DNA of 64,000 nt, taken from Gammaproteobacteria bacterium. Its GTDB lineage: Bacteria > Pseudomonadota > Gammaproteobacteria > Poriferisulfidales > Poriferisulfidaceae. The notes under the pieces are model-generated. The model did no database searches, was not told where the DNA came from, and worked only from the letters and a program-made list of their open reading frames with translations. Location: the NCBI GenBank assembly GCA_026713705.1, contig JAPONY010000055.1, positions 3,227 to 67,226 of the forward strand, in the 5' to 3' direction. A program made the position numbers and the translations under genes. Below, piece after piece: positions 2,724-58,208 of the stretch (position 1 is its first letter; each line of letters starts with the position of its first letter).

Positions 2724-2748
2724 CCGGAGAGTTTCGGGCATCTTCGAT

Positions 2749-33669: not shown

Positions 33670-33698
33670 ATGCAAGTCGGGGGGAGCCCTTCCGGCCC

Positions 33699-33820
33699 CA
33701 GACTTTACATAATTTAAAAAACTTTACATTTCTCAAGTCTTTACAAATAAAACCATTTATTATCAAAGACTTGAATGGCAAAAAAATGGTCTAAAAAAAC
33801 TGACCATTTTCCCTTGCATC
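33699..33820 (+). repeat. AT-rich repeated regulatory element, copy A (3x CTTTACA direct repeats + IR AAAATGGTC-N10-GACCATTTT)
   Basis: Three CTTTACA repeats at ~33705, 33724 and 33741, and the inverted repeat at 33785-33812. About 80% identical to copy B at 47478-47600. Confidence 0.7.
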
Positions 33821-33974
33821 GGGGAATGGTTTTCGGGTACAACAGGGGCTTCCGCCATTTCGACCCAGAGGTGTTATATTTATGGCTGCGCCCCATCAGA
33901 CTCCGGAGATTGAATCTTCCGCAACCGCTTCGGTCTCCAAGCGTCCAGGCATTCGGGAGCACAGGAAACATCCT

Positions 33975-34313
33975 ATGTTCGATACCCTGCAAGTCACCAA
34001 CGACCTGAAAAGAGGCGGACTGGCTGAACCGCAAGCAGAGGCGATAGTCTCCGCGTTCAGCACCGTCTTCCAGGACATGGTGACGAAAGACGACCTGAAG
34101 GCTGCCTTGAAAGACTACCCGACGAGAGAAGAATTGAGGGCCGAAGTGAAGGCCGCTTTGGAAGGCTATCCGACGAGGGCCGGAATAGAGAAAGGATTCA
34201 AGGATTTCTATCGCCGGTTTGTGTATATTGCAGTCGCTATTGTTGGCGTCAATGCGACGGTCACGGCCATGTTGTTCGGGGCTTTCAGCATGATGATCCG
34301 CTCTCATCTGTGA
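33975..34313 (+). CDS. DUF1640-like (CCDC90-like) small coiled-coil protein with C-terminal TM helix, paralog A
   Basis: MFDTLQVTNDLKRGGLAEPQAEAIVSAF...TKDDLKAALKDYPTREELRAEVKAALEGYPT, with a hydrophobic C-terminus. Paralogous to 34786..35013 and 59967..60479. The track start at 33882 lies over a non-coding block that is conserved upstream of paralog B, so the ATG at 33975 is preferred. Confidence 0.55.
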   Translation: MFDTLQVTNDLKRGGLAEPQAEAIVSAFSTVFQDMVTKDDLKAALKDYPTREELRAEVKAALEGYPTRAGIEKGFKDFYRRFVYIAVAIVGVNATVTAMLFGAFSMMIRSHL

Positions 34314-34320
34314 GCGTGAT

Positions 34321-34501
34321 AGACGTCATTGCCGAGGAAGGGAGCAGCATTGCGGGGGTTAATCTGGACGAGGCGCAGGGCACGGCCAATATCAACATGA
34401 GATTCATCCTGAACGTCCGCGACCGGATTCATCTGGCGGCGATCATCAAGGCGGTCCGGCGGCTGCCCGACGTGCACAAGGTGGTGCGCTTGTCGGGTTA
34501 G
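34321..34501 (+). pseudogene. Duplicated fragment of spoT 3' end (ACT domain, last ~60 codons)
   Basis: Near-identical direct repeat of 33490-33669 at nucleotide level. Encodes IAEEGSSIAGVNLDEAQGTANINMRFILNVRDRIHLAAIIKAVRRLPDVHKVVRLSG, which equals the SpoT C-terminus. There is no upstream gene body. Confidence 0.8.
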
Positions 34502-34505
34502 GTGT

Positions 34506-34640
34506 AAATTGCAAGAAAGAAACTTTACATTTCTAAAACCATTACAAATAAAAATTTTATTTATCAATATTTTATATTAGATAAAGGCAGTTATAAAAAC
34601 CGGCTGTTTTTCCTAAAATTGAAAGAAAGTTATACATCAC
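34506..34640 (+). repeat. Degenerate copy C of the AT-rich repeated element
   Basis: AAACTTTACATTTCTAAAACCATTACAAATAAAA...AACCGGCTGTTTTTCC aligns with copy A, including a decayed inverted repeat. The downstream block CAGAGGTGTTATATTTAT (34662-34679) is also shared with copy A (33866-33883). Confidence 0.5.
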
Positions 34641-34785
34641 AATAGATGTGCCAACTATTCTAATCAGAGGTGTTATATTTATAGTTAGCCCTACTAGGTT
34701 CTGAAGGCGGAACCTGTCGAACCTATAATTTCAATTGCTTTGGTTTCGAATGACTAGACATACGGAATCATAAGGAGAAATTACT

Positions 34786-35013
34786 GTGCTCAACATTTAC
34801 CGGGTTGCCTATGATCTGGAAAAAAGTGGGTTCACCGAGTCGCAGGCCGAAGCGGTGGTCTCCGCCTTGAAGGACATTCAGAAAGACCGCCCAACAAAAC
34901 TCGACGTAAAGGCTGATCTGGCTACTTTAGAGGCGCGCCTGATTTTTGGGTTTGGTTTAGCGATAGTCATCCTCGAGACTGTGGTTATCGCTTTGGTTAT
35001 CAGGGTGTTGTGA
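34786..35013 (+). CDS. DUF1640-like small coiled-coil/TM protein, paralog B (GTG start)
   Basis: SD AAGGAG 8 nt upstream of the GTG. YDLEKSGFTESQAEAVVSAL...PTKLDVKADLATLEARL with a C-terminal TM helix. 75 aa. Confidence 0.5.
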   Translation: MLNIYRVAYDLEKSGFTESQAEAVVSALKDIQKDRPTKLDVKADLATLEARLIFGFGLAIVILETVVIALVIRVL

Positions 35014-35081
35014 GGGTCTGAAGAAAGAAGCGCAAATCGCTTCTTGCGTATAATCCCGGCGAATCTTCTACTTTCTAGCGA

Positions 35082-35468
35082 ATGGCCACCGAACCGATCA
35101 GCACGCCCGATGCGCCCGACGCCATCGGCACCTACTCCCAGGCAGTCCGAAGCGGAGACTGGGTATTTCTGTCCGGCCAGATTCCCTTGGAGCCTCAGAC
35201 CATGCAAATGGTCGAAGGGGATATGCGTGCACAGATCCAAAGAGTTTTCGATAATCTCGGCGCGGTTGCTAGTGCCAGCGGCGGCAGTCTAGCTGATTGC
35301 GTCAAGCTGACGGTATACCTGACCGACCTGAGTCATTTTCCGCTGGTCAACGAAGTGATGGCGGAATATTTCTCTGAGCCGTACCCGGCACGTGCGGCAG
35401 TGGGCGTGGCGGCGCTCCCGAAGGGTGCGGCGGTCGAGATGGATGCGATTCTGAATTTAGGCGCCTGA
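35082..35468 (+). CDS. ridA: RidA family reactive-intermediate deaminase (YjgF/TdcF-like)
   Basis: 128 aa. Conserved YjgF core (GTYSQAV...VFLSGQIP..., C-terminal [22 protein letters not shown]). Confidence 0.8.
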
Positions 35469-35479
35469 CTCCGGCCCGG

Positions 35480-37588
35480 ATGACCCGGACTGATTCACCC
35501 GCTCCCGACCCAGCAGTAGCGGCGCTTCGGGCATTGTCCGGCGTCGGTCCCCGAGTATGCGAGAAGCTTGCGCGGTTGGGCATTACCCGGATCGATCACC
35601 TGCTGCTGCATCTGCCCCGGACTTACGAGGATCGGACCCAGTTGGTGTCTCTGGATGCCCTGCGCCCGGGCATCCGCTGCATGGTCGAGGGAATTGTGCA
35701 GGATGCCCGCGTGGAGTTCTACGGTGGGCGCAGGTTGCGGGTGAAACTGGCCGACGACTCTCCGGGCATGCTGGAGTTGTGCTTCATGCGCTTCAGCACT
35801 TTCCAGCAGGAACAACTAACCCCGGGGGCACGGGTGCGTTGTTTCGGGGAAGTCAAGCTATGGCGCCGCTCTTTCCGGATGTTCCATCCGGAGTACGAAC
35901 CTGTCACGCCCGACACTTCTCCCGGTGCTGCAGCTAGTCTGACTCCGGTGTATCCAGCGACGGAGGGGCTCGCGCAGATCTCCCTGCGCAAATTGATTCG
36001 CCGCGCATTGGAGTGGGCCGAAGCCCATCCGGCGCAACTGGAACACCCGGCTTGGGAAGATCTGTTCAGAAGTCAGGGTCTGCCCGGCTTCACCGAAGCG
36101 CTGCGTCACCTCCATGAGCCGGATGTAGGACTGAGTGTGGAGAGTCTGCTTTCGGAATCCGAGCCGGCCCGCCAACGGCTGATCGTGGAGGAACTGGCCG
36201 CATACCATCTAAGCTTTATCCGTTTGCGCAACCGGGCGGAACAACGGCCGGCAGATTCGTTTTCAGGTGGCGACGAACTGATTCGCCGGTTTCTGGAACG
36301 CCTGCCTTTCCCGCTGACCCGGGCGCAGGAGAGGGTGATCGAGGAAATCCGGCAGGATTTGGCCCGGAACCATCCCATGATGCGTCTGCTGCAGGGTGAT
36401 GTTGGCTCCGGCAAGACCATCGTGGCGCTGGTTGCCGCGTTGTGCGTCACCGCCTCGGATGCACAGGTGGCGGTGATGGCCCCCACTGAACTGTTGGCCG
36501 AGCAGCATTACCGCAGTTTTTGGGAATGGTTGTTTCCGTTGAACATCCCGGTGGCGTTCTTGTCGAGCAGCCAGACCCGCAAGAAGAGAGAAGAAGAAAA
36601 AGCGCGCATCCGAAGCCACGAGGCCCGCATCGTAATCGGCACGCATGCCCTGATCCAGGAGGATGTGAGTTTCGATCGACTAGGCCTGCTGATCATCGAC
36701 GAGCAGCATCGGTTCGGGGTTCATCAGCGTTTGGCCCTGCGGCGCAAGGGAGAAGATGAAAAAACCTATCCACACCAGTTGATCATGACGGCGACTCCGA
36801 TCCCGCGCAGCCTGGCCATGACGTTCTACGCTGATTTGGATGCATCGATCCTGGATGAGATGCCTCCGGGCCGCAAGCCGGTTCAGACTGCCGTCATGGC
36901 GGAAGATCGACGGGATGAACTGATGCAACGGATCCGGGAGGCCTGTCAGGAGGGGCGACAGGCGTATTGGGTCTGCACGCTGGTGGAAGAATCCGAGGTG
37001 TTGCAGTGCGAGGCGGCGGAAAGCACCTGGGGTCGGCTTCGCCAGGCGTTGCCCGAGCTTGAGGTGGGGCTGATACACGGCCGGATGAAAGCGCTGGACA
37101 AAGATCAGGTCATGCAGCGTTTCAAGAATGGGGAGGTCCAGCTTCTGGTGGCGACCACGGTCATCGAAGTGGGCGTCGACGTCCCGAATGCCTCGCTGAT
37201 GGTGATCGAGAACGCGGAGCGCCTGGGGTTGGCGCAGCTGCATCAACTTCGCGGGCGGGTCGGGCGGAGTTCCGAACAGAGCAGTTGCGTGTTGCTGTAC
37301 AAGTCGCCGTTGTCGGAAAATGCCCGTACTCGCATCCAGATTATGCGGGAGACGACCGATGGGTTCGAGATTGCGCGGCGGGACCTTCGTCTGCGCGGAC
37401 CAGGCCAGTTGCTCGGGGCTCGTCAGGCTGGAGAAATGGTGTTTCGGGTGGCAGATCTTTCGCGGGATGAGCAACAGTTGCAGCGGGTGCAGCGAATCGC
37501 CCAAGACTTCCTCCGGAAGGATCCGGAAGCAGTGGAACCGATCATGGAACGCTGGCTCGGGGATTCCCGGAACCTTGGGTCTGTCTGA
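35480..37588 (+). CDS. recG: ATP-dependent DNA helicase RecG
   Basis: Wedge domain, then SF2 helicase motifs (GDVGSGKT, DEQHRFG, TATPIPR, QLHQLRGRVGR). 702 aa; downstream of spoT as in many gammaproteobacteria. Confidence 0.9.
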   Translation: MTRTDSPAPDPAVAALRALSGVGPRVCEKLARLGITRIDHLLLHLPRTYEDRTQLVSLDALRPGIRCMVEGIVQDARVEFYGGRRLRVKLADDSPGMLELCFMRFSTFQQEQLTPGARVRCFGEVKLWRRSFRMFHPEYEPVTPDTSPGAAASLTPVYPATEGLAQISLRKLIRRALEWAEAHPAQLEHPAWEDLFRSQGLPGFTEALRHLHEPDVGLSVESLLSESEPARQRLIVEELAAYHLSFIRLRNRAEQRPADSFSGGDELIRRFLERLPFPLTRAQERVIEEIRQDLARNHPMMRLLQGDVGSGKTIVALVAALCVTASDAQVAVMAPTELLAEQHYRSFWEWLFPLNIPVAFLSSSQTRKKREEEKARIRSHEARIVIGTHALIQEDVSFDRLGLLIIDEQHRFGVHQRLALRRKGEDEKTYPHQLIMTATPIPRSLAMTFYADLDASILDEMPPGRKPVQTAVMAEDRRDELMQRIREACQEGRQAYWVCTLVEESEVLQCEAAESTWGRLRQALPELEVGLIHGRMKALDKDQVMQRFKNGEVQLLVATTVIEVGVDVPNASLMVIENAERLGLAQLHQLRGRVGRSSEQSSCVLLYKSPLSENARTRIQIMRETTDGFEIARRDLRLRGPGQLLGARQAGEMVFRVADLSRDEQQLQRVQRIAQDFLRKDPEAVEPIMERWLGDSRNLGSV

Positions 37589-37606
37589 GGTCGAGGGTGT
37601 GTGGCC

Positions 37607-38389
37607 CTAGAAGAGGCAGCAGGCTAGTTCAAACTTGACTTCTTGAGTGGTCTGGGCAGGTCGCTGATCCAGGTCGCTTCCCTCGCGGAACACGATGCTG
37701 AAAGAGCGCTTCCCGATGCTGATTTCCGGGTAGAACTCCGAGTCCACCGGCATGCGAATCCGTATCATCTGATGAATTCGGCCGGGATCCAGTATCTGCT
37801 CGAACCAGCCCTCTTTCGCGATTTCGGGAGCGAACGAAGCGCTATTCCGGACCATCTCCAACACGGTTCGCGCAATCTGGATGATGGGGGCGAACGGCTC
37901 GTACCACTGTTGCAGTTGGGCCGCATGATCGGCCTGCCGGCTGGCCAGCCAGTTGTGGTACAGCGGAATGTCGGTTTCACTGGTGCAGCCGGGCATGCGG
38001 ATGCGCTGGCTGACAGTGTTGAGCATGTCGTGCCGGGTCAGGTGCTGGTGCACGGGATACTGCAAGCCATGTGCGTCATCGCGCAGGTTCTGATGCAGTT
38101 CGATGATTTCCTTGAGGAGATCCAGGTTCGCGTTGTCGGATGAACTCAACATTTCGAGCCAAGCGAGGCGTTGATCCAGCTCGCGTATCAGTTCGACCTT
38201 AATGTTGTGCCGGCTGATTAGGCTGACGAATTCCAGCAGAGTGGCGACGGTGGAGCGGGTTCCCCACAACGAAGGCTGAGCATAGTGATATTCGAACTGT
38301 CGCGCCAGAAAGTCGATTCGCAGAAACGTGCGCATCCGCTCGTTGACGGCCTGCTCGTAGATCAAAGGGGAAGGGGAGGTGTCGTTCAT
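37607..38389 (-). CDS. zapD: Cell division protein ZapD
   Basis: 260 aa DUF1342/ZapD-like sequence. It sits downstream of coaE in the coaE-zapD arrangement. Confidence 0.7.
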   Translation of the reverse strand: MNDTSPSPLIYEQAVNERMRTFLRIDFLARQFEYHYAQPSLWGTRSTVATLLEFVSLISRHNIKVELIRELDQRLAWLEMLSSSDNANLDLLKEIIELHQNLRDDAHGLQYPVHQHLTRHDMLNTVSQRIRMPGCTSETDIPLYHNWLASRQADHAAQLQQWYEPFAPIIQIARTVLEMVRNSASFAPEIAKEGWFEQILDPGRIHQMIRIRMPVDSEFYPEISIGKRSFSIVFREGSDLDQRPAQTTQEVKFELACCLF

Positions 38390-38976: not shown

Positions 38977-38986
38977 GTGCAGGTTC

Positions 38987-39781: not shown

Positions 39782-39812
39782 CGATGTGACCGAGGGCTTG
39801 TGGTGTTATTGT

Positions 39813-40991
39813 ATGGGGATTATGAGAGGCAGTATTACTCTCCTTTGTGGAGAGACGGCCCCAGGCTTATTTTTACGGTTGTTCTGCGCCGGGGTGATCC
39901 TGCTTGCGGCGGGGATGTTCGCGCCGAAGGCTTTGATGGCAGAGTCGGAGGGTCCGGCGTATCGGATCGAAACTCTAGAGGGAGGACTGGAATACCCATG
40001 GAGCTTGGTACAACTGCCGGACGGTTCCCTGCTGATTACGGAAAAACCCGGACGCCTGCTCCACCTGGATGCCGACTTCGCCGGTCGCGATCTCATCGAA
40101 GGGGTGCCGGAGGTGGCTTGGGTCGGGCAGGGAGGGCTTTTGGATGTGGTCCTGCATCCGGAATACGGGCAGGCGGACAATCGCTGGATCTACCTCAGCT
40201 ATAGCAAATCCTGCTCTGCGGGATTCACAACGGCGCTGAGCCGTTACCGCCTGCAAGGCAATCGACTTGAGAACGGCCAGCTGCTGTTCGAGGCTCGTCC
40301 GTGCGGGGGATTGACCTGGCATTTCGGGGGGCGGCTGGCATTCGATGCGAACGGACACCTGTTTCTGACTATTGGGGATCGGGGTGAGCGCGAGAATGCG
40401 CAGGCATTAGACAGCCACTGGGGCAAATTGATTCGCCTGCATGCGGACGGGCGGATCCCGGCGGACAATCCGTTTACCGGGAACTCCGATGCCTTGCCGG
40501 AAGTGTATTCCTATGGCCACCGAAACCCGCAGGGACTTGCGTGGAACCCTTTCGATGAAAAGCTCTGGTTGCACGAGCACGGCCCGAAAGGCGGAGACGA
40601 ACTGAACCGGATTCGCGCGGGAGCCAATTACGGCTGGCCCCAGGTGACGCATGGACGCGAGTACACCGGCGGGATCATCAGCGAGCAGACGCATGCGCCG
40701 GGGATGGAGCCGCCCGTGCAACACTGGACGCCGTCAATCGCCCCGTCGGGGTTTGCGGTCTACGACGGCGCCTCTTTTGCCGAATGGCGCGGAGATTTCC
40801 TGGTGGGTGCACTGAAGTTCCGAAGCGTGTACCGAGTACAGTTGCGAGCGGAGGGCGGGGTGCATGAGCAGGTCCTGCCGGAACCCAAGGAGCACCGCAT
40901 CCGCGATGTGCGGGTGCTGGCGGACGGCCTGATTTACTTGCTGACGGACGATTCGAATGGGCAACTGCTGAGATTGGTACCCAACAATTAA
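39813..40991 (+). CDS. PQQ-dependent soluble sugar (glucose/sorbosone) dehydrogenase, YliI-like
   Basis: Signal peptide, then beta-propeller sGDH motifs (PWSLVQLPDGSLLITEKPGRL, HFGGRLAFD, YSYGHRNPQGLAWNP). Start taken at an internal ATG, since the track start lies inside the pilD upstream region. Confidence 0.7.
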   Translation: MGIMRGSITLLCGETAPGLFLRLFCAGVILLAAGMFAPKALMAESEGPAYRIETLEGGLEYPWSLVQLPDGSLLITEKPGRLLHLDADFAGRDLIEGVPEVAWVGQGGLLDVVLHPEYGQADNRWIYLSYSKSCSAGFTTALSRYRLQGNRLENGQLLFEARPCGGLTWHFGGRLAFDANGHLFLTIGDRGERENAQALDSHWGKLIRLHADGRIPADNPFTGNSDALPEVYSYGHRNPQGLAWNPFDEKLWLHEHGPKGGDELNRIRAGANYGWPQVTHGREYTGGIISEQTHAPGMEPPVQHWTPSIAPSGFAVYDGASFAEWRGDFLVGALKFRSVYRVQLRAEGGVHEQVLPEPKEHRIRDVRVLADGLIYLLTDDSNGQLLRLVPNN

Positions 40992-41028
40992 GCTGATGAA
41001 GGCAATTGCAAAAGGGGTTGCATGCGTA

Positions 41029-41049
41029 GTTAATATTAAGTATATTAAC
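41029..41049 (+). promoter_or_regulatory. Putative parDE operator/promoter inverted repeat
   Basis: GTTAATAT-taagt-ATATTAAC, a perfect 8-bp inverted repeat 25 nt upstream of the parD start in an AT-rich stretch. Confidence 0.45.
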
Positions 41050-41073
41050 TACATTCCTTGTGGCTAAACCGTT

Positions 41074-41328
41074 ATGGCACGCACGACAACAATGACAGTT
41101 CGCCTCAGTGGCGCACTCAGTGATTTCGTTTCAGCGAATGTCAGTGAGACTGGATCTTACGAGAATGTAAGTGAGTACGTTCGCGACTTGATTCGACGTG
41201 ATAAAGAGCGGGTGGAGCTGGAGGCCTTTCAACGCCTCAAAGCTGAACTGGAACACGCTTTTGCAGCACCAGATAGTTCATTTCACCCTCTTTCGGCCTC
41301 GGATGTCATCGCACGGAACAAAACCTAG
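41074..41328 (+). CDS. parD: Type II antitoxin, ParD family (ribbon-helix-helix)
   Basis: 84 aa; MARTTTMTVRLSGALSDFV...SEYVRDLIRRDKER is typical of ParD. It lies immediately upstream of the toxin gene. Confidence 0.75.
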   Translation: MARTTTMTVRLSGALSDFVSANVSETGSYENVSEYVRDLIRRDKERVELEAFQRLKAELEHAFAAPDSSFHPLSASDVIARNKT

Positions 41329-41336
41329 GCTTGTGC

Positions 41337-41663
41337 ATGGCGTCGATCCGCGTTCAAGAGGCGGCTTCTCTCCGCATTGATGAGATTTATCGATATTCCC
41401 AAGACAAGTGGGGGAGCGATCAGGCTGATGCTTATATCATGGGATTGTTCGAGGTATTTGCCGCAATTGCGGCGGGTAGCGTTCTGTCCCGCCCGATCCC
41501 GGCAGAATTTGGAATAGATGGTTATTTTTATAGATATGAGAGACACTATATCTATTGGAAGAAACTAAATAATGGAGACGTTGGCATCGTTACTATTCTG
41601 CATGAGCGTATGCACCAGATCGACAGGTTTCAAGAAGATTTTAAAAATGAATTTTCCGCATAA
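41337..41663 (+). CDS. parE: Type II toxin, ParE/RelE family
   Basis: ~108 aa; IDEIYRYSQDKWGSDQADAYIMGLFEVF...YIYWKKLNNGDVGIVTILHERMHQ is typical of ParE plasmid-stabilisation toxins. Its start sits 9 nt after the parD stop. Confidence 0.7.
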   Translation: MASIRVQEAASLRIDEIYRYSQDKWGSDQADAYIMGLFEVFAAIAAGSVLSRPIPAEFGIDGYFYRYERHYIYWKKLNNGDVGIVTILHERMHQIDRFQEDFKNEFSA

Positions 41664-41714
41664 TCCTCCATAATTAGTGGGCATCTACATCATCCGCGCC
41701 CGCTACTTTATTTC

Positions 41715-43313
41715 ATGACTAATCTTCCGCCCGCCCGACTCGTCCAGTTCAACCCGCTGGTCGGCGACATCGACGGCAACCGTGCCCGCATCGAGGCGCG
41801 GCTGGAAGGTCAGGACCAACCTTCGATCTGGGTGTTTCCGGAACTGGCATTGTGTGGCTATCCCCCGGAAGACCTCCTGCTGCGTGATGATTTCATCAAT
41901 CGCATCGACGAGGCTCTGGAGGAACTGGCGCGCTGCAGCGGAGAGCATTGGGTGATCGTCGGGGCTCCGGTGCGTGAGAATGGCGCCTTGTTCAACGCCG
42001 CCTGCGTACTGCATCAGGGCCAACGGGTCGGCTTTGCCCGCAAGAGGCTGCTGCCGCAGTATGACGTCTTTGATGAGCAGCGCTACTTTGTTCCGGGCTC
42101 GGAGCCTTTCATCGTTGAAGCCGGGAGACGGCTGGGATTGCTGGTTTGCGAGGACTTGTGGCAGCCGGAGCCGGCTGCGGACTTGGCGGCGGCCGGGGCG
42201 GAAGTCCTGGTTTGCCTGAACGCCTCTCCGTTCGATCTCCACAAGGCCTCCAAGCGCTTGGAGGCCGCGCGTGCGCGCGCAATGGAAACTGGCTGCCCGG
42301 TCTGGTACGTCAACCAGGTCGGCGGACAGGACGAACTGGTTTTCGATGGGGCGAGTTTTGTGCTGGATGCTTCCGGGCAGCGAACGGCACAACTGCCTTC
42401 TTTTGTTGAAGCCGAAGCGGAACTGGTGCCCGAGGGCTTGGACTGGGGCGGTTCCCGGCAAGAGATCGAAGACTTGGACGAGAATGCGTCCTTATACCAG
42501 GCATTGGTGTTGGGAGTGCGCGACTACGTGAACAAGCACCGTGCCCCCGGCGCGTTGCTCGGCCTGTCTGGCGGTATTGATTCGGCTTTGGCGCTGGTCG
42601 TCGCGGTGGATGCTTTGGGTCCCGAGAGGCTGGAGGCAGTGCTGATGCCTTCGAGATACACGTCGCAGGCCAGCGTGGAGGACGCGGTGCTACTGTGCGA
42701 ACGCTTGGGCGTTTCCTCTCTGGCATTGTCGATCGAGCCAGCCTTCCAGGCTTTGCTTGAGACCTTGGGCCCGGAAGCCGAGCAAGACGATATAGTTTGT
42801 CAGAACCTACAGGCGCGCGTCCGCGGCCTGTTGTTGATGGCACGCTCGAACCACAGCGGGAAACTGCTTCTGACGACCGGAAACAAGAGCGAAATGGCGG
42901 TCGGCTACGCGACCCTGTACGGCGATATGGCGGGAGGGTTTGCGCCGCTCAAGGACATATTCAAGACCCGTGTGTACCAGTTGACCCGCTATCGCAACCG
43001 CGACGAGGAAGTCATCCCGGAGAGGATCCTGACTCGCCCACCGTCGGCGGAATTGAAGGCGGATCAGAAAGACTCCGATTCATTGCCGGATTACGCCGTA
43101 CTGGATGCCATTCTGCGCCTGTTCATCGAGGAAGACTGTTCGCTTTCGGAAATCGTGGCACAGGGGTTTGATGCCGACCTGGTCCATGATGTGGTCGCCC
43201 GGGTGCTCGGAAGCGAGCATAAACGCAGGCAGGCGCCGCCGGGAGTGAAAACGACGGAACGGGCATTTGGACGGGATCGGCGTTACCCGATCACGTCCGG
43301 CTACAAAGCCTGA
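41715..43313 (+). CDS. nadE: Glutamine-dependent NAD+ synthetase (N-terminal CN-hydrolase domain + NAD synthetase domain)
   Basis: Nitrilase-like N-terminus (VFPELALCGYPPEDLLL; catalytic C in LVCEDLW). PP-loop SGGIDSAL in the C-terminal domain. 532 aa. Confidence 0.9.
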   Translation: MTNLPPARLVQFNPLVGDIDGNRARIEARLEGQDQPSIWVFPELALCGYPPEDLLLRDDFINRIDEALEELARCSGEHWVIVGAPVRENGALFNAACVLHQGQRVGFARKRLLPQYDVFDEQRYFVPGSEPFIVEAGRRLGLLVCEDLWQPEPAADLAAAGAEVLVCLNASPFDLHKASKRLEAARARAMETGCPVWYVNQVGGQDELVFDGASFVLDASGQRTAQLPSFVEAEAELVPEGLDWGGSRQEIEDLDENASLYQALVLGVRDYVNKHRAPGALLGLSGGIDSALALVVAVDALGPERLEAVLMPSRYTSQASVEDAVLLCERLGVSSLALSIEPAFQALLETLGPEAEQDDIVCQNLQARVRGLLLMARSNHSGKLLLTTGNKSEMAVGYATLYGDMAGGFAPLKDIFKTRVYQLTRYRNRDEEVIPERILTRPPSAELKADQKDSDSLPDYAVLDAILRLFIEEDCSLSEIVAQGFDADLVHDVVARVLGSEHKRRQAPPGVKTTERAFGRDRRYPITSGYKA

Positions 43314-43324
43314 ATTGACCGGAT

Positions 43325-44485
43325 TCAGTTCGACGGCGCCGGGTCCGGCGCACTTTCTTCCGGCGATGTGTCCGAGGTTTCCGAGGTCACGGTGGGCTCG
43401 GGGATGTCCTCCGGGGCACTCGGGAGATCTTCATCGTCGGACAGGCTCAGCAGCCTGCGCAACTGATACCAGAGATCCTGGGAGTCGATGTCCGACGTCG
43501 GGACATGGCCGCTTGGGACCTCGCTGACCACGACCTTGTCCGGTTCGTGTGCCGCGACGAATTCCTCGGCTTCGCCGAGATTGAGTACGACTCTCTGGTA
43601 CTTGCCGCTGAATTCGGGCGGCGGGAACTCTTCGATGTCGAACCCGACCATGATGGCGGCGCTGTCGACCGTGTCGCTGATCCAGTCGCCCGTGTTTGAC
43701 AGCCAGGTTGGCTCTTCCACTTCGGCTGCCTTTCGGGCTTCATAATTCGGGAAGTTGAGATCCCGGACACTCCGCGTGTCGTCTGCGAGTTGGTGCATTT
43801 CCAGATGGCGGTAACCCTCTTCCAGGTACCACAGCATATCGTCCATGTTTGGCGCACCATGGTAGCGCTTCAGCGCGTGTTTGCTTCGGTTGACGACCGC
43901 GACGTAGGCTTTGCGGCGTAAATAGAAATCCGCGACATGCAGTTCATAGCGGGCCAGCAGATTGCGCAGGAAGATGGTGTGCTGGCGAGAGTCCGCCGCA
44001 TATCGCGATTCTGGAAATTTCGTCACGACCAAGGAAAAGTTCTTGAACGCATGCAGCCACGGGGTTGGGTCTTTGTTGTGTCGGATGTAGGGCAGGACAT
44101 AATGCATCAGGGTTCGGCCGTAATCCAGATAGGCAACGCCCTGCATGTAGTGTGCATACGCGATATGCGTGTGTAGCGGGTTTTGCTCCATAAAGCGATT
44201 GAGCACGACGATTGCTTCGTTATATTCCTCTTGCCGGTAAAAGGAGTAGGCCATCTCCAGCAGGCCTTGCTGGGCATAGGGATCAAATGGATACCCGGAC
44301 TCCAGATGTTCGAAAGCCTCGATCGCCTTGGTGAAATCGCCGCCTCGACGATAGGAAAGGCCCATGGCATACAACTGTGCCGCGGATTTGCCCTCGTATT
44401 CGGTTTCCGGCGCGTCCGGCAACAGCCCGCAACCGGCCATCATCAACAACGACGCAAAAGAAAGAACGACAGGGAGAAAACGCAT
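43325..44485 (-). CDS. bamD: Outer membrane protein assembly factor BamD (TPR lipoprotein) with acidic/Pro-rich C-terminal extension
   Basis: Lipobox (LLMMAGCG). TPR repeats. bamD/rluD divergent synteny. 386 aa versus the typical ~245, with a C-terminal D/E/P/S-rich tail. Confidence 0.8.
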   Translation of the reverse strand: MRFLPVVLSFASLLMMAGCGLLPDAPETEYEGKSAAQLYAMGLSYRRGGDFTKAIEAFEHLESGYPFDPYAQQGLLEMAYSFYRQEEYNEAIVVLNRFMEQNPLHTHIAYAHYMQGVAYLDYGRTLMHYVLPYIRHNKDPTPWLHAFKNFSLVVTKFPESRYAADSRQHTIFLRNLLARYELHVADFYLRRKAYVAVVNRSKHALKRYHGAPNMDDMLWYLEEGYRHLEMHQLADDTRSVRDLNFPNYEARKAAEVEEPTWLSNTGDWISDTVDSAAIMVGFDIEEFPPPEFSGKYQRVVLNLGEAEEFVAAHEPDKVVVSEVPSGHVPTSDIDSQDLWYQLRRLLSLSDDEDLPSAPEDIPEPTVTSETSDTSPEESAPDPAPSN

Positions 44486-44545
44486 TACAGGGGATTGGAT
44501 TCAACTGCAAAATTATATAACGGCAGTGATAGGATGGGATTTTTA

Positions 44546-45514
44546 ATGGTTGGCTGGAGCGGGCAATTGGACGGTTTGCCTCTGGTGGGGGAAGTGCCGG
44601 AAGACTTGGCGGGGAAGCGCCTGGACGTTGCGCTGGCACAGATGTTCAGCCAGTTTTCCCGGCGGCAGTTGCAGGACTGGATTCGGGCGGGGCGCGTGCT
44701 GGTGGAAGGAGAAATGGCTCGCCCCCGGGATCCGGTGGGGGGCTGTGAGCGGGTCGAGGTCTGGCCGCAGGCCGCCACACCCTCCCAGTGCGAGCCTCAG
44801 GATCTGCCTCTGGCCGTCGTGTTTGCCGATGATGACCTGATTGTTTTGAACAAGGCGGCCGGACAGGTTATGCATCCGGCCCCCGGGCACCCGGACGGGA
44901 CGATCCAGAACGCGCTCTTGTTCCACTTCCCGGCGACCGCTAAAGTGCCACGAGCAGGAATCGTGCACCGGCTGGACCGTGACACGACCGGGCTCGTAGT
45001 GGTGGCGCATAACCTTGAATCCTGCACGGCACTGACCCGGCAGCTTCAGATGCGCGAGATTCAACGGCGATATCAGGCTCTGGTCCAGGGTGAACTGATC
45101 GCAGGAGGGACGATAGAGGAGCCGATCGGGCGGCACCCAAGGCAGCGACAGCGCATGTGTGTACGCGAAGGCGGTCGGGAGGCCATCACGCATTATCGGC
45201 TTCGGCGAAAATTCCGCGGCCTGACCCTGCTCGATGTCCGTCTTGAGACCGGACGTACGCACCAGATCCGGGTGCATTTGGCGCATCTGGGCCATCCAGT
45301 AGTCGGGGATCCGGTGTACGGCGGACGCGCAAGAAGTCCATCAGACGCATCTGTCGCCGTACGCGACGCAGTTCGAGGATTCGGGCGACAGGCATTACAT
45401 GCCTGCTCCCTACAACTCCGGCATCCGACTCGAGGAACCCTAGTCGACTGGAACGCAGACTTGCCGGAAGACTTTCGGGGTTTGTTGGCGCAACTGGAAG
45501 GCGACCGTGACTGA
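44546..45514 (+). CDS. rluD: 23S rRNA pseudouridine synthase D
   Basis: S4 domain, then RluA-family catalytic motif HRLDRDTTGLVVVA. Alternative start at 44534. Synteny with bamD and pgeF. Confidence 0.85.
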   Translation: MVGWSGQLDGLPLVGEVPEDLAGKRLDVALAQMFSQFSRRQLQDWIRAGRVLVEGEMARPRDPVGGCERVEVWPQAATPSQCEPQDLPLAVVFADDDLIVLNKAAGQVMHPAPGHPDGTIQNALLFHFPATAKVPRAGIVHRLDRDTTGLVVVAHNLESCTALTRQLQMREIQRRYQALVQGELIAGGTIEEPIGRHPRQRQRMCVREGGREAITHYRLRRKFRGLTLLDVRLETGRTHQIRVHLAHLGHPVVGDPVYGGRARSPSDASVAVRDAVRGFGRQALHACSLQLRHPTRGTLVDWNADLPEDFRGLLAQLEGDRD

Positions 45515-46247
45515 GCCGGAATTCGTCTATCCGGATTGGCCCGCGCCTGACCACGTGCGAGCGGCGACGAGCACTCGGGCCGGGGGGGTCAGTCGGAACG
45601 CTTATGCAGGATTCAACCTTGCCGCGCATGTGGACGACCGGCCTGAGGATGTACAGCAGAACCGGGAGATTTTGGCGCAGACCCTTCGGTTGCCTGGCGA
45701 ACCGTATTGGCTGGATCAGCAACATGGTGCCATGGTTCAGGAGGCGCGGATCACACCAGAATTGGTCAAGGCAGACGCGAGCTACACCACCTGCGCGGGA
45801 CCGATCTGTGTTGTCCAGACAGCAGACTGCTTGCCGGTTTTGCTGTGCTCACGAAAAGGCGATTGGGTGGCTGCAGCACATGCCGGTTGGAAGGGCATTG
45901 CTGCGAATGTCCTGCAGGCGGCAATTCATGCCTACCCGGGACCGCCAGAGGATCTGCTAGTTTGGCTCGGCCCGGCAATCAGTATGGAATTCTATGAGGT
46001 GGATGAGCTGGTGCGGGCGGCATTGGGCAAGGAACTTGCTTCGGTGGCATTCCGTCCGTCTGGGCGTGCTGGACACTGGTTGTTGGATCTGACGTCTGCC
46101 GCCGCATGGCAGTTAGAGCGGGCCGGTGTCGAGCACTGTTACGGTGCCGAAGAATGTACTTTTCAGGATGAGCGCCGTTTTTATTCGTACCGCCGAGATC
46201 GGATAACTGGGCGTATGGCGACGTTGATCTGGATGGAAAAGCATTAA
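45507..46247 (+). CDS. pgeF: Peptidoglycan editing factor PgeF (YfiH/DUF152, purine nucleoside phosphorylase-like)
   Basis: 246 aa. Conserved H/C/H residues (DQQHG, TADCLPVLL, AAHAGWKG). GTG start overlapping rluD by 8 nt. Confidence 0.8.
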   Translation: MTEPEFVYPDWPAPDHVRAATSTRAGGVSRNAYAGFNLAAHVDDRPEDVQQNREILAQTLRLPGEPYWLDQQHGAMVQEARITPELVKADASYTTCAGPICVVQTADCLPVLLCSRKGDWVAAAHAGWKGIAANVLQAAIHAYPGPPEDLLVWLGPAISMEFYEVDELVRAALGKELASVAFRPSGRAGHWLLDLTSAAAWQLERAGVEHCYGAEECTFQDERRFYSYRRDRITGRMATLIWMEKH

Positions 46248-46355
46248 TTCCAGCCAAAATCAAACTGATGAGCCGGATAGCAATCAGGTGAAGGTTTCAG
46301 CAGGCCGATCCGGCCAAGATGCCTAAATGTAAGTAATTGATTCATGAGTGAGAAA

Positions 46356-46383
46356 AATGGTCTAAAAAATCTGACCATTTTTT
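46356..46383 (+). repeat. Partial copy D of the repeated element (inverted-repeat part only)
   Basis: AAAATGGTC-TAAAAAATCT-GACCATTTT lies 60 nt upstream of the first T4SS-module gene. Confidence 0.6.
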
Positions 46384-46446
46384 GTTTACTTCTCGGAAAC
46401 TTTGCGGTAGAACCAAATTCTTTGCAAATTTCTCTAGGAGGCACGG

Positions 46447-47097
46447 ATGAATTTCCAAAAATCATCCCGGACACGCTGGCGGGTGTGGTTGGCAGGCGGA
46501 GTCTTTTCTCTGTTATTACTGGCTGCGCTTGTCCACGAGATGTTACGAGGTTCGAACGAGACATTTGCATTTTCTGATCCAGGTGTTCAGCTACTTCAGC
46601 CAACAGAGCTTCCGTCGGCGGCAAGTGCAATTCCCGAAATCGATATGAAACTGTTGTCGGAATCTTTGGCACAGACTCTGGACAACCGTCTTAACAAATG
46701 GGATCAACGCAACCTTGAAGTGTTCGAAAAAACCTTTCTGTCTCAGATGCGAACATTCGAAAAATGGAGGGAAGGGCTTGACGAGAAACTCAAAACACAA
46801 TCCTCCAGGCTACAGGGCATGGACCAGAAGCTGCACTTGCTTGAGCGTGGCATGAACCGGTTGCTAGGTTCCCTTGAAGACGAAGCGATTCAGGTGTCCA
46901 TGGAGCCTGAGTTCATTTTTCGGGGCATTGAAGTCTGGCATGGGCAAGCGTATGCGCTGCTTGAGCACCAAGGGCGGATTTTGCCAGCACGGCAGGGAGA
47001 CTCTCGGCTAGGCTGGAGAATCAACGCCATTGACCGCGATAATCAGAAATTACACATCAGCGACGGTATGACGAAACTTATCCTGGAGGAACAATGA
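46447..47097 (+). CDS. ICE/T4SS-module protein: N-terminal TM anchor, coiled coil, C-terminal beta-rich domain (function unknown)
   Basis: 216 aa. First gene of the co-directional cluster. Its stop overlaps the next start (ATGA). Confidence 0.45.
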   Translation: MNFQKSSRTRWRVWLAGGVFSLLLLAALVHEMLRGSNETFAFSDPGVQLLQPTELPSAASAIPEIDMKLLSESLAQTLDNRLNKWDQRNLEVFEKTFLSQMRTFEKWREGLDEKLKTQSSRLQGMDQKLHLLERGMNRLLGSLEDEAIQVSMEPEFIFRGIEVWHGQAYALLEHQGRILPARQGDSRLGWRINAIDRDNQKLHISDGMTKLILEEQ

Positions 47098-47480
47098 GCA
47101 GGGTGTGGCGCCGGGAAGCCGGATGGTTGATAGGGCTTACGGCCCTAGCTGGAGTTGCGGCATCCGTAATTCTTGATGTGCAGGCGGCGCGCGAAGAAGC
47201 GAGTCAGTGGCAGAAAACCGACCTCCGTGTGCTTCGCTGGCTGGAATTGAGCGAGGAGGAATGGCGTCAATATCAATCGTGGCGCTCCTTGATTGGCAAG
47301 CCACTGGCCGAAATGACTCCATACGAGGTCTTAGGGATTTATGCGGATGATGCAGAACAGCGGCGCCGGTTTGCTAGAGAGAATGCCCGTTTTATGCTTG
47401 ATTTCTACCGACGAACTATGGAATTTGAACAGATTTACCGAGAAGAATTGGGAAAGCTTTCGGGCGAACAAAGGCCTTAA
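47094..47480 (+). CDS. ICE/T4SS-module small protein with N-terminal TM helix
   Basis: 128 aa. Translationally coupled to the upstream gene. Confidence 0.4.
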   Translation: MSRVWRREAGWLIGLTALAGVAASVILDVQAAREEASQWQKTDLRVLRWLELSEEEWRQYQSWRSLIGKPLAEMTPYEVLGIYADDAEQRRRFARENARFMLDFYRRTMEFEQIYREELGKLSGEQRP

Positions 47481-47600
47481 ACTTTACATAAGATAAAAAA
47501 CTTTACATTTCCCAAAGCTTTACAGATAAATTTATTATTTATCAGTATGTTAATAAGCAAATAAATGGTCAAAAAAAACTGACCATTTTTCCTTGCTTTC
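47478..47600 (+). repeat. AT-rich repeated regulatory element, copy B (3x CTTTACA + IR AAATGGTC-N10-GACCATTTT)
   Basis: AACTTTACATAAGATAAAAAACTTTACATTTCCCAAAGCTTTACAGATAAA...AAATGGTCAAAAAAAACTGACCATTTTTCCTTGC. Collinear with copy A at 33699-33820. Confidence 0.7.
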
Positions 47601-47651
47601 TGGCAATGAGTGTTAGAGACTGCACAGGCGGTAATTACTCCCACGGATGGG

Positions 47652-47676
47652 GGGCCGTGTAGGGCCGCCCAGCCTT
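47652..47676 (+). promoter_or_regulatory. GC-rich hairpin in 5' leader of the main T4SS operon
   Basis: GGGCCGCCC-agcctta-GGGCGGCCC, a perfect 9-bp stem 35 nt upstream of the 47711 start. No U-tract follows. Confidence 0.35.
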
Positions 47677-47710
47677 AGGGCGGCCCTCAACTCCGCCCGG
47701 AGGCCTAAGA

Positions 47711-48356: not shown

Positions 48357-48359
48357 ATC

Positions 48360-51953: not shown

Positions 51954-52079
51954 AAAGTCAAGAAAAATGAATAACAAAAAATCATCACACCCAAGGAATA
52001 GGGATCCTAGAAGAAACGGTTATTGCCCTGTTTGTCTTCGATGTGGCTTTGCCACTGTGTTTCTGCCGAGGACGGGGCC

Positions 52080-53473: not shown

Positions 53474-53533
53474 GGAGGAACCATCGTGGGCAAAAAGAAA
53501 AAATCAAAAAAGAAAGTCACTCTGGAACGCATC

Positions 53534-58203: not shown

Positions 58204-58208
58204 CGGGA

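Follow-up and report, generated by a model that had tools for sequence, protein, structure and literature searches.

SetCD (SXT/R391 ICEs) and AcaCD (IncA/C plasmids) are FlhDC-type master activators. Every SXT transfer operon has a SetCD box directly before its -35, and such boxes are found in unrelated islands too (PMC4344509). In ICEclc, the transfer promoters carry a common motif and a BisC site, and in the ChIP consensus of BisC a 12-bp spacer separates the arms of a weak inverted repeat (PMC9286271, PMC12409273). Shared upstream regions are also known from work on putative mobile promoters and promoter propagation (Matus-Garcia, Nijveen and van Passel 2012; PMC3488235).

How does the present locus compare with these systems? 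The window, that is the whole 64 kb stretch of DNA analysed, comes from 'Ca. Porisulfidus', an uncultured gammaproteobacterium and sponge symbiont with a chromosome of about 1.6 Mb. A first-pass annotation had noticed an element shared by the upstream regions of DUF1640 genes and of type IV secretion operons. The element is real. Aligned without gaps over 124 nt, the collinear copies A (33694-33817) and B (47473-47596) agree at 79% of positions, and the CTTTACA triplets and the inverted repeat (IR) described before were recovered. The A copy of a near-identical genome (L093) matches window copy B by blastn with E = 2e-24. We consider the element to be the control region of consensus-weak sigma-70-type promoters forming one regulon in the 'Ca. 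Porisulfidus' clade, with a probability of about 0.62. The IR motif in front of these genes is previously unreported.

As with SetCD and AcaCD, one conserved site stands before every transfer operon, directly upstream of a poor -35 hexamer, and also before genes outside the conjugative element, as in the mobilisable islands that use the same activator (PMC4344509). The sequences are unrelated, however, with a 6-9 bp dyad and a 10-bp spacer here and a 19-bp box there; secretion is of the MPF_G ICE type, not the F type; and the site here is a predicted operator. No setCD- or flhDC-like genes were seen in the window. ICEclc, a model ICE, is of the same MPF_G class with the same secretion gene family (TIGR037xx), and several of its operon promoters, including the secretion-component promoter P67231, have a motif in common. 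That published 27-bp motif is GC-rich and bears no likeness to ATGGTC-N10-GACCAT (PMC9286271 S3 Fig); unlike it, the present motif also serves host DUF1640 genes and is absent from homologous secretion clusters of more distant lineages. Genes for bisC, bisD and bisS were not found in the window. Like mobile promoters, A and B are closely similar upstream regions before non-homologous genes in one genome, but there is no sign of a transposable vehicle, and the copies are old, positionally stable across species, and conserved in discrete sites, not evenly. The order of distal repeats, IHF-consensus site and promoter-proximal site is also that of the IHF-bend upstream activating sites of many sigma-54 and some sigma-70 promoters, although the sigma-54 -24/-12 element (GG-N10-GC) was not found between IR and genes.

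Window copies and neighbouring genes

Copies A, D and B and the genes behind them are arranged as follows.

33702..33745, + strand: copy A direct repeats r1 (33703-33709), r2 (33722-33728) and r3 (33739-33745), exact matches to the core CTTTACA
33761..33773, + strand: copy A IHF-consensus site TATCAAAGACTTG, exact match to WATCARNNNNTTR
33783..33810, + strand: copy A IR AAAATGGTC-TAAAAAAACT-GACCATTTT, the proposed operator, arms identical in copies found by homology or synteny
33814..33843, + strand: copy A putative sigma-70 promoter, TTGCAT (33814-33819), 18-nt spacer, TACAAC (33838-33843)
33868-33873, + strand: ribosome-binding site GAGGTG, AGGTGTTATATTTATG conserved in orthologs
33868..34313, + strand: DUF1640a gene call including the ribosome-binding site, 143 aa, ATG 33882 to stop 34313
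46330..46342, - strand: copy D IHF-consensus site AATCAATTACTTA, consensus match
46353..46382, + strand: copy D IR AAAAATGGTC-TAAAAAATCT-GACCATTTTT, exact IR match
46385..46413, + strand: copy D putative promoter by sequence reading, TTTACT, 17 nt, TAGAAC
46447..47480, + strand: orf216 and orf128, first operon of the secretion cluster; orf128 has a weak TIGR03759 match
47482..47524, + strand: copy B direct repeats r1, r2 and r3, exact CTTTACA matches
47540..47552, + strand: copy B IHF-consensus site TATCAGTATGTTA, consensus match
47563..47588, + strand: copy B IR AAATGGTC-AAAAAAAACT-GACCATTT, exact IR match
47593..47621, + strand: copy B putative promoter, TTGCTT and a candidate -10, in a stretch identical in three genomes
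47661..47687, + strand: GC-rich hairpin in the RAQPRD operon leader, 10-bp stem
47711..59780, + strand: main ICE-type (MPF_G, ICEclc/PFGI-1 class) type IV secretion operon

CTTTACA occurs nine times in the window against 2.2 expected, and six of the nine form two triplets, starting at 33703/33722/33739 (A) and 47482/47501/47518 (B), with start-to-start spacings of 19 and 17 nt. The extended form of the repeat is ACTTTACAT. In A-type and F-type orthologs r1 and r2 are near-invariant and r3 is variable; all three repeats of copy B are kept in two further genomes. The array is limited to the A, B and F locus types, with only r1 and r2 conserved, and the CTTTACA region is absent from the D, E, G and H types.

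For AAATGGTC-N10-GACCATTT the expectation is 0.25 occurrences in the window, and there are exactly three, at 33784 (A), 46355 (D) and 47563 (B). All IR copies share a 22-bp dyad, ATGGTC-N10-GACCAT, usually extended to 9-bp arms. The first-pass annotation had described a perfect 9-bp IR within a shared unit of about 130 bp. The IR is indeed present in A and B, but the perfect arms of B are 8 bp (TAAATGGTC on the left), and what the IR copies all share is not the whole 130 bp but the IR and a hexamer 6 nt beyond it. The 'TATCA box' of A, B and C is more correctly an exact IHF consensus, WATCARNNNNTTR. The 64 kb window has five exact matches to it, four of them within A, C, D (on the minus strand) and B. 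The ATTGATT block of copy D is also found upstream of the IR in the E and G locus types.

The remaining DUF1640 genes and the spoT region contain the following features.

33495..33675, + strand: spoT 3' end, copy 1 of a 181-nt direct repeat (repeat comparison)
34310-34501, + strand: 63-aa ACT-domain ORF (PF13291), overlapping the DUF1640a stop codon by 4 nt
34327..34507, + strand: spoT 3' end, copy 2, 94% identical (repeat comparison)
34517..34574, + strand: copy C, with CTTTACA at 34523, CATTACA, and an IHF-consensus site at 34562-34574
34786..35013, + strand: DUF1640b, short 75-aa paralog whose conserved upstream ATG is now ATA
59967..60479, + strand: DUF1640-3, 170 aa, five 33-nt tandem repeats, closing the secretion cluster

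Since the last 181 nt of spoT are duplicated, A with DUF1640a and C with DUF1640b are two tandem units. This duplication had been overlooked before, as had DUF1640-3, which has no element of its own upstream. Copy C is decayed, as already recognised: it keeps repeat two, a degenerate form of repeat three and the TATCA box, has lost the IR, and goes undetected by the core profile. The N-terminal extension of DUF1640a is in frame in paralogs too, and the 63-aa ORF is also found in another species (L112). DUF1640 products are membrane coiled-coil proteins, and their genes are dispersed.

The main secretion operon encodes RAQPRD, TIGR03758, 03750, 03746, 03749, 03752, 03751 and 03756, followed by a TraC-type ATPase (TIGR03744), TIGR03755 and a TraG_N protein. 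Five sequences, among them some of distant lineages, retain the stem of its leader hairpin; one change in it is compensatory and two are G-U changes.

Conservation of the dyad and the putative promoters

Is the motif conserved beyond the window? In a scan of 185,579 species genomes, matches to the strict IR pattern are confined to the genus Porisulfidus, and one complete 1.57 Mb chromosome (OZ220694.1) has four, each upstream of a gene. Relatives provide about 30 copies of nine locus types in several species. These are not randomly scattered: all are intergenic, in the same orientation as the downstream gene, and 60-125 nt before its start. Downstream are DUF1640 genes at the spoT, rph, rpsA/lapB and Fic/hemH loci, and also orf216, RAQPRD, pilL2 (then secretin) and a CPBP protease gene; the E copy is similar to G-type DUF1640 promoters. 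For pattern-found copies the identity of most arms is built into the search itself. Exact arms are also present in copies reached independently of the pattern, via DUF1640 or RAQPRD homologs and synteny, namely those of L112 (n=2), L113, L115, L147, L149 and L150, the L095 B copy and the L151 D copy.

The arms are constant even where flanks and spacers have diverged, and the sole change is ATGGTT, in the H locus type only. This lack of drift argues for sequence-specific recognition. In L151, of a distant lineage, the loop has become AGGTTGTCCT with the arms and N10 spacing retained, so it is the arms and spacing that matter, not the A-tract. The B-type copy of L151 has lost the loop (TGGTCtGACCA) but is still symmetrical and still has its -35. 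In the N10 dyad the two half-sites are centred about 16 bp (1.5 helical turns) apart, an unusual spacing for a simple dimer.

In all locus types a TTG-type hexamer begins 7 nt past GACCAT (6-nt gap), and a -10-like hexamer stands 17-18 nt further on. The putative promoter hexamers agree with consensus at 6-9 of 12 positions, and TACAAC is missing the final T usual in a -10 hexamer. A simple consensus promoter scan called none of them; copy A's promoter was missed as well, so it is weak by consensus. As read from the hexamers, transcription at copy A would start near 33850. The -10 of copy B is uncertain and may be TAGAGA (15-nt spacer, TG before it) or GAGACT (17-nt spacer). L151 has TTGACG, 17 nt and TACAAC at the position of the copy D promoter. 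From IR to start codon, copy D is near-identical in three other genomes, and it is divergent upstream of the IR. Among seven F-type and six A-type orthologs, r1, r2, IR, -35, TACAACAG and the ribosome-binding site are invariant, and the -35/-10 spacer and leader are variable. The conserved blocks run in the order r1/r2, IHF-consensus site, IR, TTG hexamer, -10-like hexamer and ribosome-binding site, with variable spacers; in A, D and E the gap from IR to ribosome-binding site is only about 55-60 nt, which just accommodates one promoter. The proposal made from the window, of a promoter-associated module common to DUF1640 genes and secretion operons, is supported.

Alternative explanations

Could the IR be an intrinsic, possibly bidirectional terminator, so that the shared sequence is a terminator-plus-promoter insulator without a dedicated regulator? 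The genes ended would be spoT, pgeF, orf128 and the CPBP protease gene, and A, D, B, E and H each follow a co-directional gene. Four to six T come after the hairpin, as in a weak hairpin terminator, and the minus strand has its own T-run; over 51 nt the predicted folds range from -13.5 to -18 kcal/mol (z-scores -2.2 to -4.3), copy B is flagged on the minus strand by a terminator scan, and the H-type arm change retains a G-U pair in the plus-strand RNA and so equally fits an RNA hairpin. However, only 3 of 9 stem pairs are G-C, the loop is 8-10 nt, and the arm sequence is the same at nine locus types and in several species without compensatory changes, whereas loops and flanks vary. At the F locus a terminator would have no upstream gene to end, since rph is divergent there; the loopless L151 copy keeps its symmetry and -35; and the fixed 6-nt gap to the TTG hexamer is left unexplained. 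We regard the insulator as unlikely, and likewise the IR acting as a terminator alone.

It is quite unlikely that transcription starts upstream of the IR, for example in the AT-rich CTTTACA region, which would make the IR a 5' leader RNA hairpin serving as an attenuator or RNA-binding-protein site. TTTACA is similar to a -35 hexamer, the hairpin with its U-run is shaped like an attenuator, and the H-type change preserves G-U. Nevertheless, none of the three repeats has a usable -10, the candidates ending in A, not T; the D, E, G and H types have neither the CTTTACA region nor a consistent promoter upstream of the IR; and the stem is without covariation. The element matches no Rfam family, the best being Spot 42 (E = 0.4), whose 18 bits fall short of the gathering score of 80.

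The likeness might also reflect common descent only, DUF1640 genes having been duplicated with their upstream regions, with a few chance recombinations and no co-regulation. DUF1640 paralogs are downstream of most copies, so descent of gene and promoter together could explain much of the sharing; the two tandem units of L112 are nearly identical, and the A, C and F copies have the ribosome-binding-site block in common. We find this rather improbable, for non-homologous genes or operons, four in all (orf216, RAQPRD, pilL2 and CPBP protease), also have the IR and hexamer upstream, the arms are invariant although the paralog proteins have diverged to 35-50% identity, and conserved blocks between variable spacers point to purifying selection on discrete sites.

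Mobile or structural DNA (a MITE/REP-type repeat, an attachment site at the spoT 3' end, a transfer origin, or an iteron-type origin or partition site) is highly improbable: the element is an AT-rich island within a 60% GC genome, combines direct repeats, IHF site and IR as attP sites, transfer origins and replication origins do, adjoins the 181-nt spoT duplication at copy A and stands at the edge of the inserted secretion cluster at copy D, but terminal inverted repeats and target-site duplications are absent on reading copies A and B, one 1.57 Mb chromosome has only four strict-pattern copies, orthologous positions are stable across species, and every copy stands at a fixed distance before a gene of the same orientation. 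Genes for recombinases, relaxases, replication or partition are next to none of the copies, and no similarity to plasmids or phages was found. A MITE identity was rejected on the missing terminal repeats and target duplications and the stable positions; for the same reasons the mobile promoter cassette suggested earlier is acceptable only in a weak sense, as reuse of promoters.

A probable regulon shared by host and secretion genes

How would such promoters be controlled? In the regulon reading, we infer that the dyad is bound by a dimeric or higher-order DNA-binding protein. Given the 6-nt gap to the -35 and the 17-18 nt to the -10, the dyad would span about -63 to -42, and the protein most likely activates from this position beside the -35. 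Upstream of the dyad, at 10-20 nt, comes the IHF-consensus site, and beyond it the A, B and F types have a conserved pair of ACTTTACAT direct repeats, 19 bp apart; these probably bind a second factor, which DNA bending would carry to the promoter. The distal direct repeats, with their 19-bp spacing, are putative sites that recall LytTR- or AraC-type binding, and the half-sites TGGTC/GACCA and the collapsed TGGTCtGACCA form of L151 resemble GntR/FadR-type operators. By analogy with SetCD, AcaCD or BisC boxes, the best reading is that the promoters would be activator-dependent with one common operator. Directly visible are the sequences with their conservation, geometry and neighbouring genes; promoter function, protein binding, the sign of control and the direction of recruitment are inferred from them. 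No regulator gene was found, and none adjoins any copy.

Is the regulator encoded by an ICE, as the first-pass annotation had considered possible? There is no support for this. The secretion cluster lies in the chromosome as an insertion, with pgeF on one side and a DUF1640 gene on the other; in a relative without the cluster at this locus the DUF1640-3 ortholog is directly beside pgeF, and in a second species the position is unchanged at 89% identity. No relaxase, coupling protein or integrase is present in the 64 kb window, and homologous clusters of more distant lineages are without the IR. With the cluster stable in the chromosome and its distant homologs lacking the IR, the motif seems to stem from the host, and the secretion genes probably recruited it. 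The regulon would then comprise the DUF1640 genes, two ICE-type secretion operons, the pilL2 type IVb pilus operon and the CPBP protease gene. Since the secretion and pilus promoters are homologous to DUF1640 promoter subtypes, they probably joined a pre-existing host regulon, and promoter capture or copying may have been the route.

Copies in the window and among relatives

The element is an AT-rich control region around an inverted repeat, ATGGTC-N10-GACCAT, here called the dyad. Its copies in the window are given with the features that they flank.

Copies of the element and adjoining features
33694-33817: copy A, dyad at 33784, ahead of the DUF1640 gene DUF1640a
34517-34574: copy C, decayed and without the dyad, ahead of DUF1640b
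46248-59966: 13.5 kb secretion cluster, between pgeF and DUF1640-3
46355: dyad of copy D, ahead of orf216
47473-47596: copy B, dyad at 47563, ahead of the RAQPRD operon
59967-60479: third DUF1640 gene, DUF1640-3

The description of A and B in the first-pass annotation is borne out: their gap-free alignment of 124 nt is 79% identical, and both carry CTTTACA three times (r1, r2 and r3) with start-to-start spacings of 19 and 17 nt. For the whole window the count of this heptamer is 9, where 2.2 would be expected. The motif AAATGGTC-N10-GACCATTT is found exactly three times, in A, D and B, where 0.25 are expected, and a profile made from all related copies gave no additional copy in the 64 kb. Two details need correction. 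The arms were said to be 9 bp long, while those of B are perfect over 8 bp; and the reported TATCA box is present but is an exact IHF consensus (WATCARNNNNTTR); A, C, B and, on the opposite strand, D contain four of its five exact matches in the window.

It was missed at first reading that A with DUF1640a and C with DUF1640b form two tandem units, each opening with a copy of the final 181 nt of spoT (33495-33675 and 34327-34507). The spoT copies are 94% identical and the remainder of the units is clearly less alike (74% over 58 nt for the A and C elements). The second spoT copy makes up an intact 63-aa ACT-domain ORF (34310-34501) that overlaps the stop codon of DUF1640a by 4 nt (GTGA). In another species (L112) the same arrangement is found with two nearly identical units; this mini ORF may be a functional gene, its similarity maintained through gene conversion. 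Note that the 1.57 Mb chromosome OZ220694.1 (L093) lacks window positions 34138-35008, its one DUF1640 gene coding for a different C-terminus, and that L113 likewise has one unit only; thus the spoT-ridA spacer is structurally polymorphic.

How widely is the element distributed? OZ220694.1, labelled 'candidatus Porisulfidus', is 98% identical to the window, and a second species (OY288106.1) is 89% identical and shares the order pgeF-D-orf216-B-RAQPRD; exact protein matches come from metagenome assemblies only. When a strict dyad-plus-loop pattern was scanned over 185,579 species, one genome each, true matches were found in these two chromosomes only: A, D, B plus an additional copy, E, in the first (4 strict copies in 1.57 Mb), D and a copy F in the second. 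A looser pattern added 13 related copies from JGI metagenomes, in 12 of 30 matching loci, true and chance matches being told apart by loop, flanks and GC content. Exact arms are also present in copies to which DUF1640 or RAQPRD homologs and synteny led without use of the pattern (two in L112; one each in L113, L115, L147, L149 and L150; B of the second species; D of L151, a distant lineage). These carry weight because the arms were not imposed by the search that found them. A profile scan of the retrieved loci revealed an additional type, H, whose left arm is ATGGTT. The total is about 30 distinct copies of nine locus types, with at least six types per genome.

Locus types: gene downstream; -35-like hexamer; spacer; -10-like hexamer, where listed
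A: DUF1640, after spoT; TTGCAT; 17-18 nt; block TACAACAG
F: DUF1640, beside divergent rph; TTCCAT; 17-18 nt; block TACAACAG
G (three variants): DUF1640 paralogs, two of the three loci adjoining rpsA/lapB and Fic/hemH; TTGCCT or TTGACT; 17-18 nt; CATCAT or CACCAT
D: orf216; TTTACT; 17 nt; TAGAAC (in L151: TTGACG; 17 nt; TACAAC)
B: RAQPRD operon
E: pilL2, then a PilN-type secretin; TTGATT; 17 nt; TAATGT
H: CPBP/Rce1-like protease, immediately upstream of pilL2

All copies are intergenic and directed at the downstream gene, whose start codon lies 60-125 nt past the dyad's end. The MITE-like scatter that the first-pass annotation would have held against its own proposal is not seen, as every copy is associated with a gene. 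One site is common to several secretion or pilus operons (orf216, RAQPRD, pilL2 and CPBP-pilL2) as well as DUF1640 genes. Among viral contigs the inverted repeat alone gave 59 matches, none related, with other loops and no CTTTACA. A blastn search of A and B against plasmids and phages returned none, with part of the query possibly masked by the low-complexity filter. Further pattern matches in genomes and metagenomes were chance or unrelated, such as a repeated coding motif in Latescibacterota. There, many ATGGTCTGAAAAAGCTGACCAT copies, each within a conserved stretch of about 150 nt (L070, L072, L076-L078, L080, L082, L083, L087, L090, L091, L096, L098, L100, L104), look like a multi-copy coding family, which is unrelated to the element.

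Anatomy of the element and its predicted action

A footprint was obtained from ortholog alignments of seven F-type and six A-type sequences, in which the following blocks and their conservation are seen directly.

Conserved blocks, 5' to 3', all invariant or nearly so
r1 and r2 (ACTTTACAT), 19 bp apart
Part of the IHF-like site
Dyad with flanking A and T runs
-35-like hexamer, starting 7 nt past GACCAT
-10-like block TACAACAG, after another 17-18 nt
AGGTGTTATATTTATG or AGGAGTGCTATATTATG, the ribosome-binding site and start codon

The sequence between the hexamers is free to vary, as is most of the leader. This geometry recurs in the remaining locus types, the TTG hexamer starting 7 nt past GACCAT in all types. 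Among D copies of four genomes, the sequence from dyad to start codon is almost constant and the 100 nt upstream of the dyad are divergent. In the D copy of L151 a loop AGGTTGTCCT replaces the A-run and the arms and their 10-nt spacing are retained; therefore arms and spacing are the constrained features. The CTTTACA array is confined to A, B, F and, in decayed form, C, whereas D, E and G have ATTGATT upstream of the dyad instead, which is the IHF consensus on the other strand.

What might the dyad do? In A, D and E only 55-60 nt separate it from the ribosome-binding site, which is just enough room for one promoter, where both hexamers sit. The hexamers match 6-9 of the 12 sigma-70 consensus positions, and a simple promoter scan did not call them. 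Judged from sequence, the putative -35 is weak and stands at a fixed place next to the dyad in all types. Such weak hexamers fit promoters that require an activator, and together with the limited space they lead us to read the dyad as a regulator binding site. What we infer here is that the promoters are active, that proteins bind them and in which direction they regulate. At about -63 to -42, the dyad would be bound by a regulator in dimeric or higher-order form, most likely one that activates by contacting RNA polymerase at -35; the IHF-like site would provide a DNA bend, and r1 and r2 may be sites for a second factor at a subset of promoters. No candidate regulator gene was found in the window or adjoining any copy. 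As possible leads to families, direct 9-bp repeats about 19-21 bp apart bring to mind LytTR- or AraC-type regulators, and the half-sites TGGTC/GACCA, like the collapsed TGGTCtGACCA in the B copy of L151, resemble GntR/FadR operators.

Other promoter readings were rejected. With GTCWAA of the left arm as a sigma-E-type -10, there is no consistent GGAACTT upstream and the symmetric right arm is unexplained. Taking TGTTATATT, immediately ahead of the ATG, for an extended -10 is at odds with an N-terminal extension that is in frame in all paralogs, so this block is the ribosome-binding site and start codon. No sigma-54 element (-24 GG/-12 GC, TGGCAC-N5-TTGC) occurs on the plus strand between inverted repeat and start codon of A, D and B with up to 3 mismatches, and the 278 matches in the entire window are at chance level (289 expected).

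Could the dyad be a hairpin terminator instead? This is the most serious rival for the dyad, which does fold, has 4-6 T after it with a T-run on the other strand too, and in most copies follows a co-directional gene; a terminator scan passed B alone, on the minus strand. The stem is weak, however, with three G-C pairs out of nine and a loop of 8-10 nt. The arms are the same everywhere except for one C-to-T change in type H and there are no compensatory pairs, the upstream gene at the F locus is divergent, and the B copy of L151 has lost the loop and retained the dyad symmetry. Moreover, the constant distance to the -35 plays no part in termination. The dyad may additionally insulate the promoter from upstream transcription. 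A hairpin in leader RNA would need a promoter further upstream, and no consistent one exists in D, E, G or H; support from Rfam is absent too, with no match in the window at gathering score (Rfam 15). At a permissive threshold Spot 42 alone appears (33715-33827, minus strand, with 18 bits where the gathering score is 80, at E = 0.4), judged to be a chance match to an AT-rich stretch containing a hairpin.

Pure paralogy, by which the copies would be alike because their genes are, cannot explain the similarity: it leaves four non-homologous downstream genes unaccounted for, and the arms are invariant beside proteins that are 35-50% identical. A MITE or REP-type repeat, an attachment site, a transfer origin and an iteron origin or partition site can be dismissed on copy number (4 strict copies per 1.57 Mb), stable orthologous positions and constant orientation upstream of and along with a gene, there being no terminal repeats or target duplications at the borders of A or B and no recombinase, relaxase, replication or partition gene flanking any copy.

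Gene context and origin of the proposed regulon

Gene order in the window
spoT; A, DUF1640a; 63-aa ACT-domain ORF (from the spoT 3' end); C, DUF1640b
ridA, recG, zapD, coaE, pilD, glucose/sorbosone dehydrogenase
ParD/ParE-type toxin-antitoxin pair, nadE, bamD, rluD, pgeF
D, orf216, orf128 (first secretion operon); B, RAQPRD and the rest of the ICE-type T4SS genes
DUF1640-3, rhodanese, purH (opposite strand)

The secretion system is of class MPF_G (ICEclc/PFGI-1 class), with TIGR037xx families, a TraC-type ATPase and a TraG_N protein, and at 46.2 kb the GC content, about 0.61 until then, drops to about 0.55. Genes for mating-pair formation are the only ones between pgeF and DUF1640-3/purH. The window has no tRNA gene, relaxase, coupling protein or integrase, and within it the cluster does not show the set expected of an ICE, in which secretion genes are accompanied by an integrase, a relaxase, a coupling protein and att repeats. 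The pilus genes map to another part of the chromosome, next to tig-clpX and the CPBP gene.

Two local features deserve mention. In OZ220694.1 about 30 nt stand in place of the toxin-antitoxin pair (41074-41663, in the stretch 40982-41708); the insertion or deletion is specific to the strain. The RAQPRD operon has a GC-rich hairpin (47661-47687) in its leader, found in five sequences including lineages without the dyad; one change in it is compensatory and two are G-U changes, and it may represent an attenuator or a structure of the leader RNA.

Proteins of the DUF1640 family are coiled coils anchored in the membrane and bear a beta-layer motif A-T-K-x-[DE] (PMC4786415). DUF1640-3 has it as LATKTD, the F-type proteins have VATKDD, and DUF1640a has the variant VTKDD. 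The literature on the function of bacterial DUF1640 yielded only the structural note on beta-layer coiled coils. DUF1640-3 contains five tandem 33-nt repeats (60147-60311) encoding 11-aa units; the second species has an ortholog with 33 additional residues, suggesting that repeat number varies. GDMEKME repeats of a similar kind are seen in the G-type paralogs.

Where did the shared control come from? The evolutionary account is what we infer throughout from comparison of loci. The secretion cluster is read as an insertion, because a relative (L154) has pgeF, a restriction-modification gene, DUF1640-3, rhodanese and purH in order with the secretion genes absent. Homologous clusters of other lineages have different neighbours, and the dyad is absent from both such clusters of high-GC lineages. 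In one high-GC lineage a different dyad, ACGGATTTT-CTGA-AAAAATCCG, followed by a TAGGAT hexamer, lies upstream of the orf216 homolog (L152:2150-2200); it may be an equivalent site with other specificity, or a terminator. The gap between pgeF and DUF1640-3, filled in L154 by an MmeI-like restriction-modification gene (566-4000), looks like an insertion hot spot.

Every secretion or pilus promoter resembles one subtype of DUF1640 promoter. B resembles A and F, r1-r3 included, and A and B, at 79% identity, stand before the non-homologous DUF1640a and RAQPRD; D and E resemble G, types E and G being alignable through the -35 and leader, and E sharing the leader block CCCGAACCGGAG with one G copy. 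The simplest account would be that the motif belongs to a host DUF1640 regulon, which acquired secretion and pilus operons joined by promoter capture or copying. This reverses the earlier suggestion of an ICE-encoded regulator. A check for capture at pgeF in L154 found no dyad, the restriction-modification gene occupying the spot. The fuller reading is more doubtful, and we give it about one chance in four: a host-encoded regulator would govern the trimeric coiled-coil DUF1640 membrane family and would have taken over an ICE-derived T4SS and a type IVb pilus, the modules of which are now dispersed in the chromosome of a reduced-genome symbiont.

Relation to known systems and significance

The closest analogues would be the operators of conjugation master activators such as SetCD, AcaCD and BisC. 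SetCD acts through a 19-bp box directly upstream of the -35 in all SXT transfer operons, and in unrelated islands too (PMC4344509). The transfer-competence promoters of ICEclc, whose secretion system is of the same class as that of the window, have a common 27-bp motif, and the ChIP consensus of BisC is a weak inverted repeat with a 12-bp spacer (PMC9286271, PMC12409273). These boxes agree with the dyad element in logic and position, but the ICEclc motif is GC-rich, unlike the dyad, and a comparison found no similarity. Genes for cognate activators of the SetCD or ICEclc kind were not found in the window or next to any copy. The element may thus work like a master-activator box; membership is not claimed, because its sequence is unrelated to the ICEclc motif and cognate activators were not found. 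The likeness of A and B also fits the reuse of promoters before non-homologous genes (PMC3488235).

The element is a real, conserved regulatory module of one clade only, its motif undescribed and of a familiar kind. No general principle is altered, since operators shared beside the -35 of transfer operons are well known. An uncultured clade of sponge symbionts now has a concrete cis-regulatory signature, in the form of a profile with a catalogue of genes, and the element probably exemplifies the wiring of horizontally acquired secretion genes into a host regulon via promoter capture. If the fuller reading, with a host-encoded regulator in charge of T4SS and pilus, is true, the dyad with its unusual 10-bp spacer would be a new class of operator, and DUF1640 proteins would be a partner, or cargo, of a domesticated conjugation machine in symbiosis. 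Through predicted shared control, the bacterial DUF1640 proteins, which are uncharacterised, are tied to a type IVb pilus and to an ICE-type secretion system fixed in the chromosome of a reduced-genome symbiont; this is a useful and testable lead to the role of both in symbiosis.
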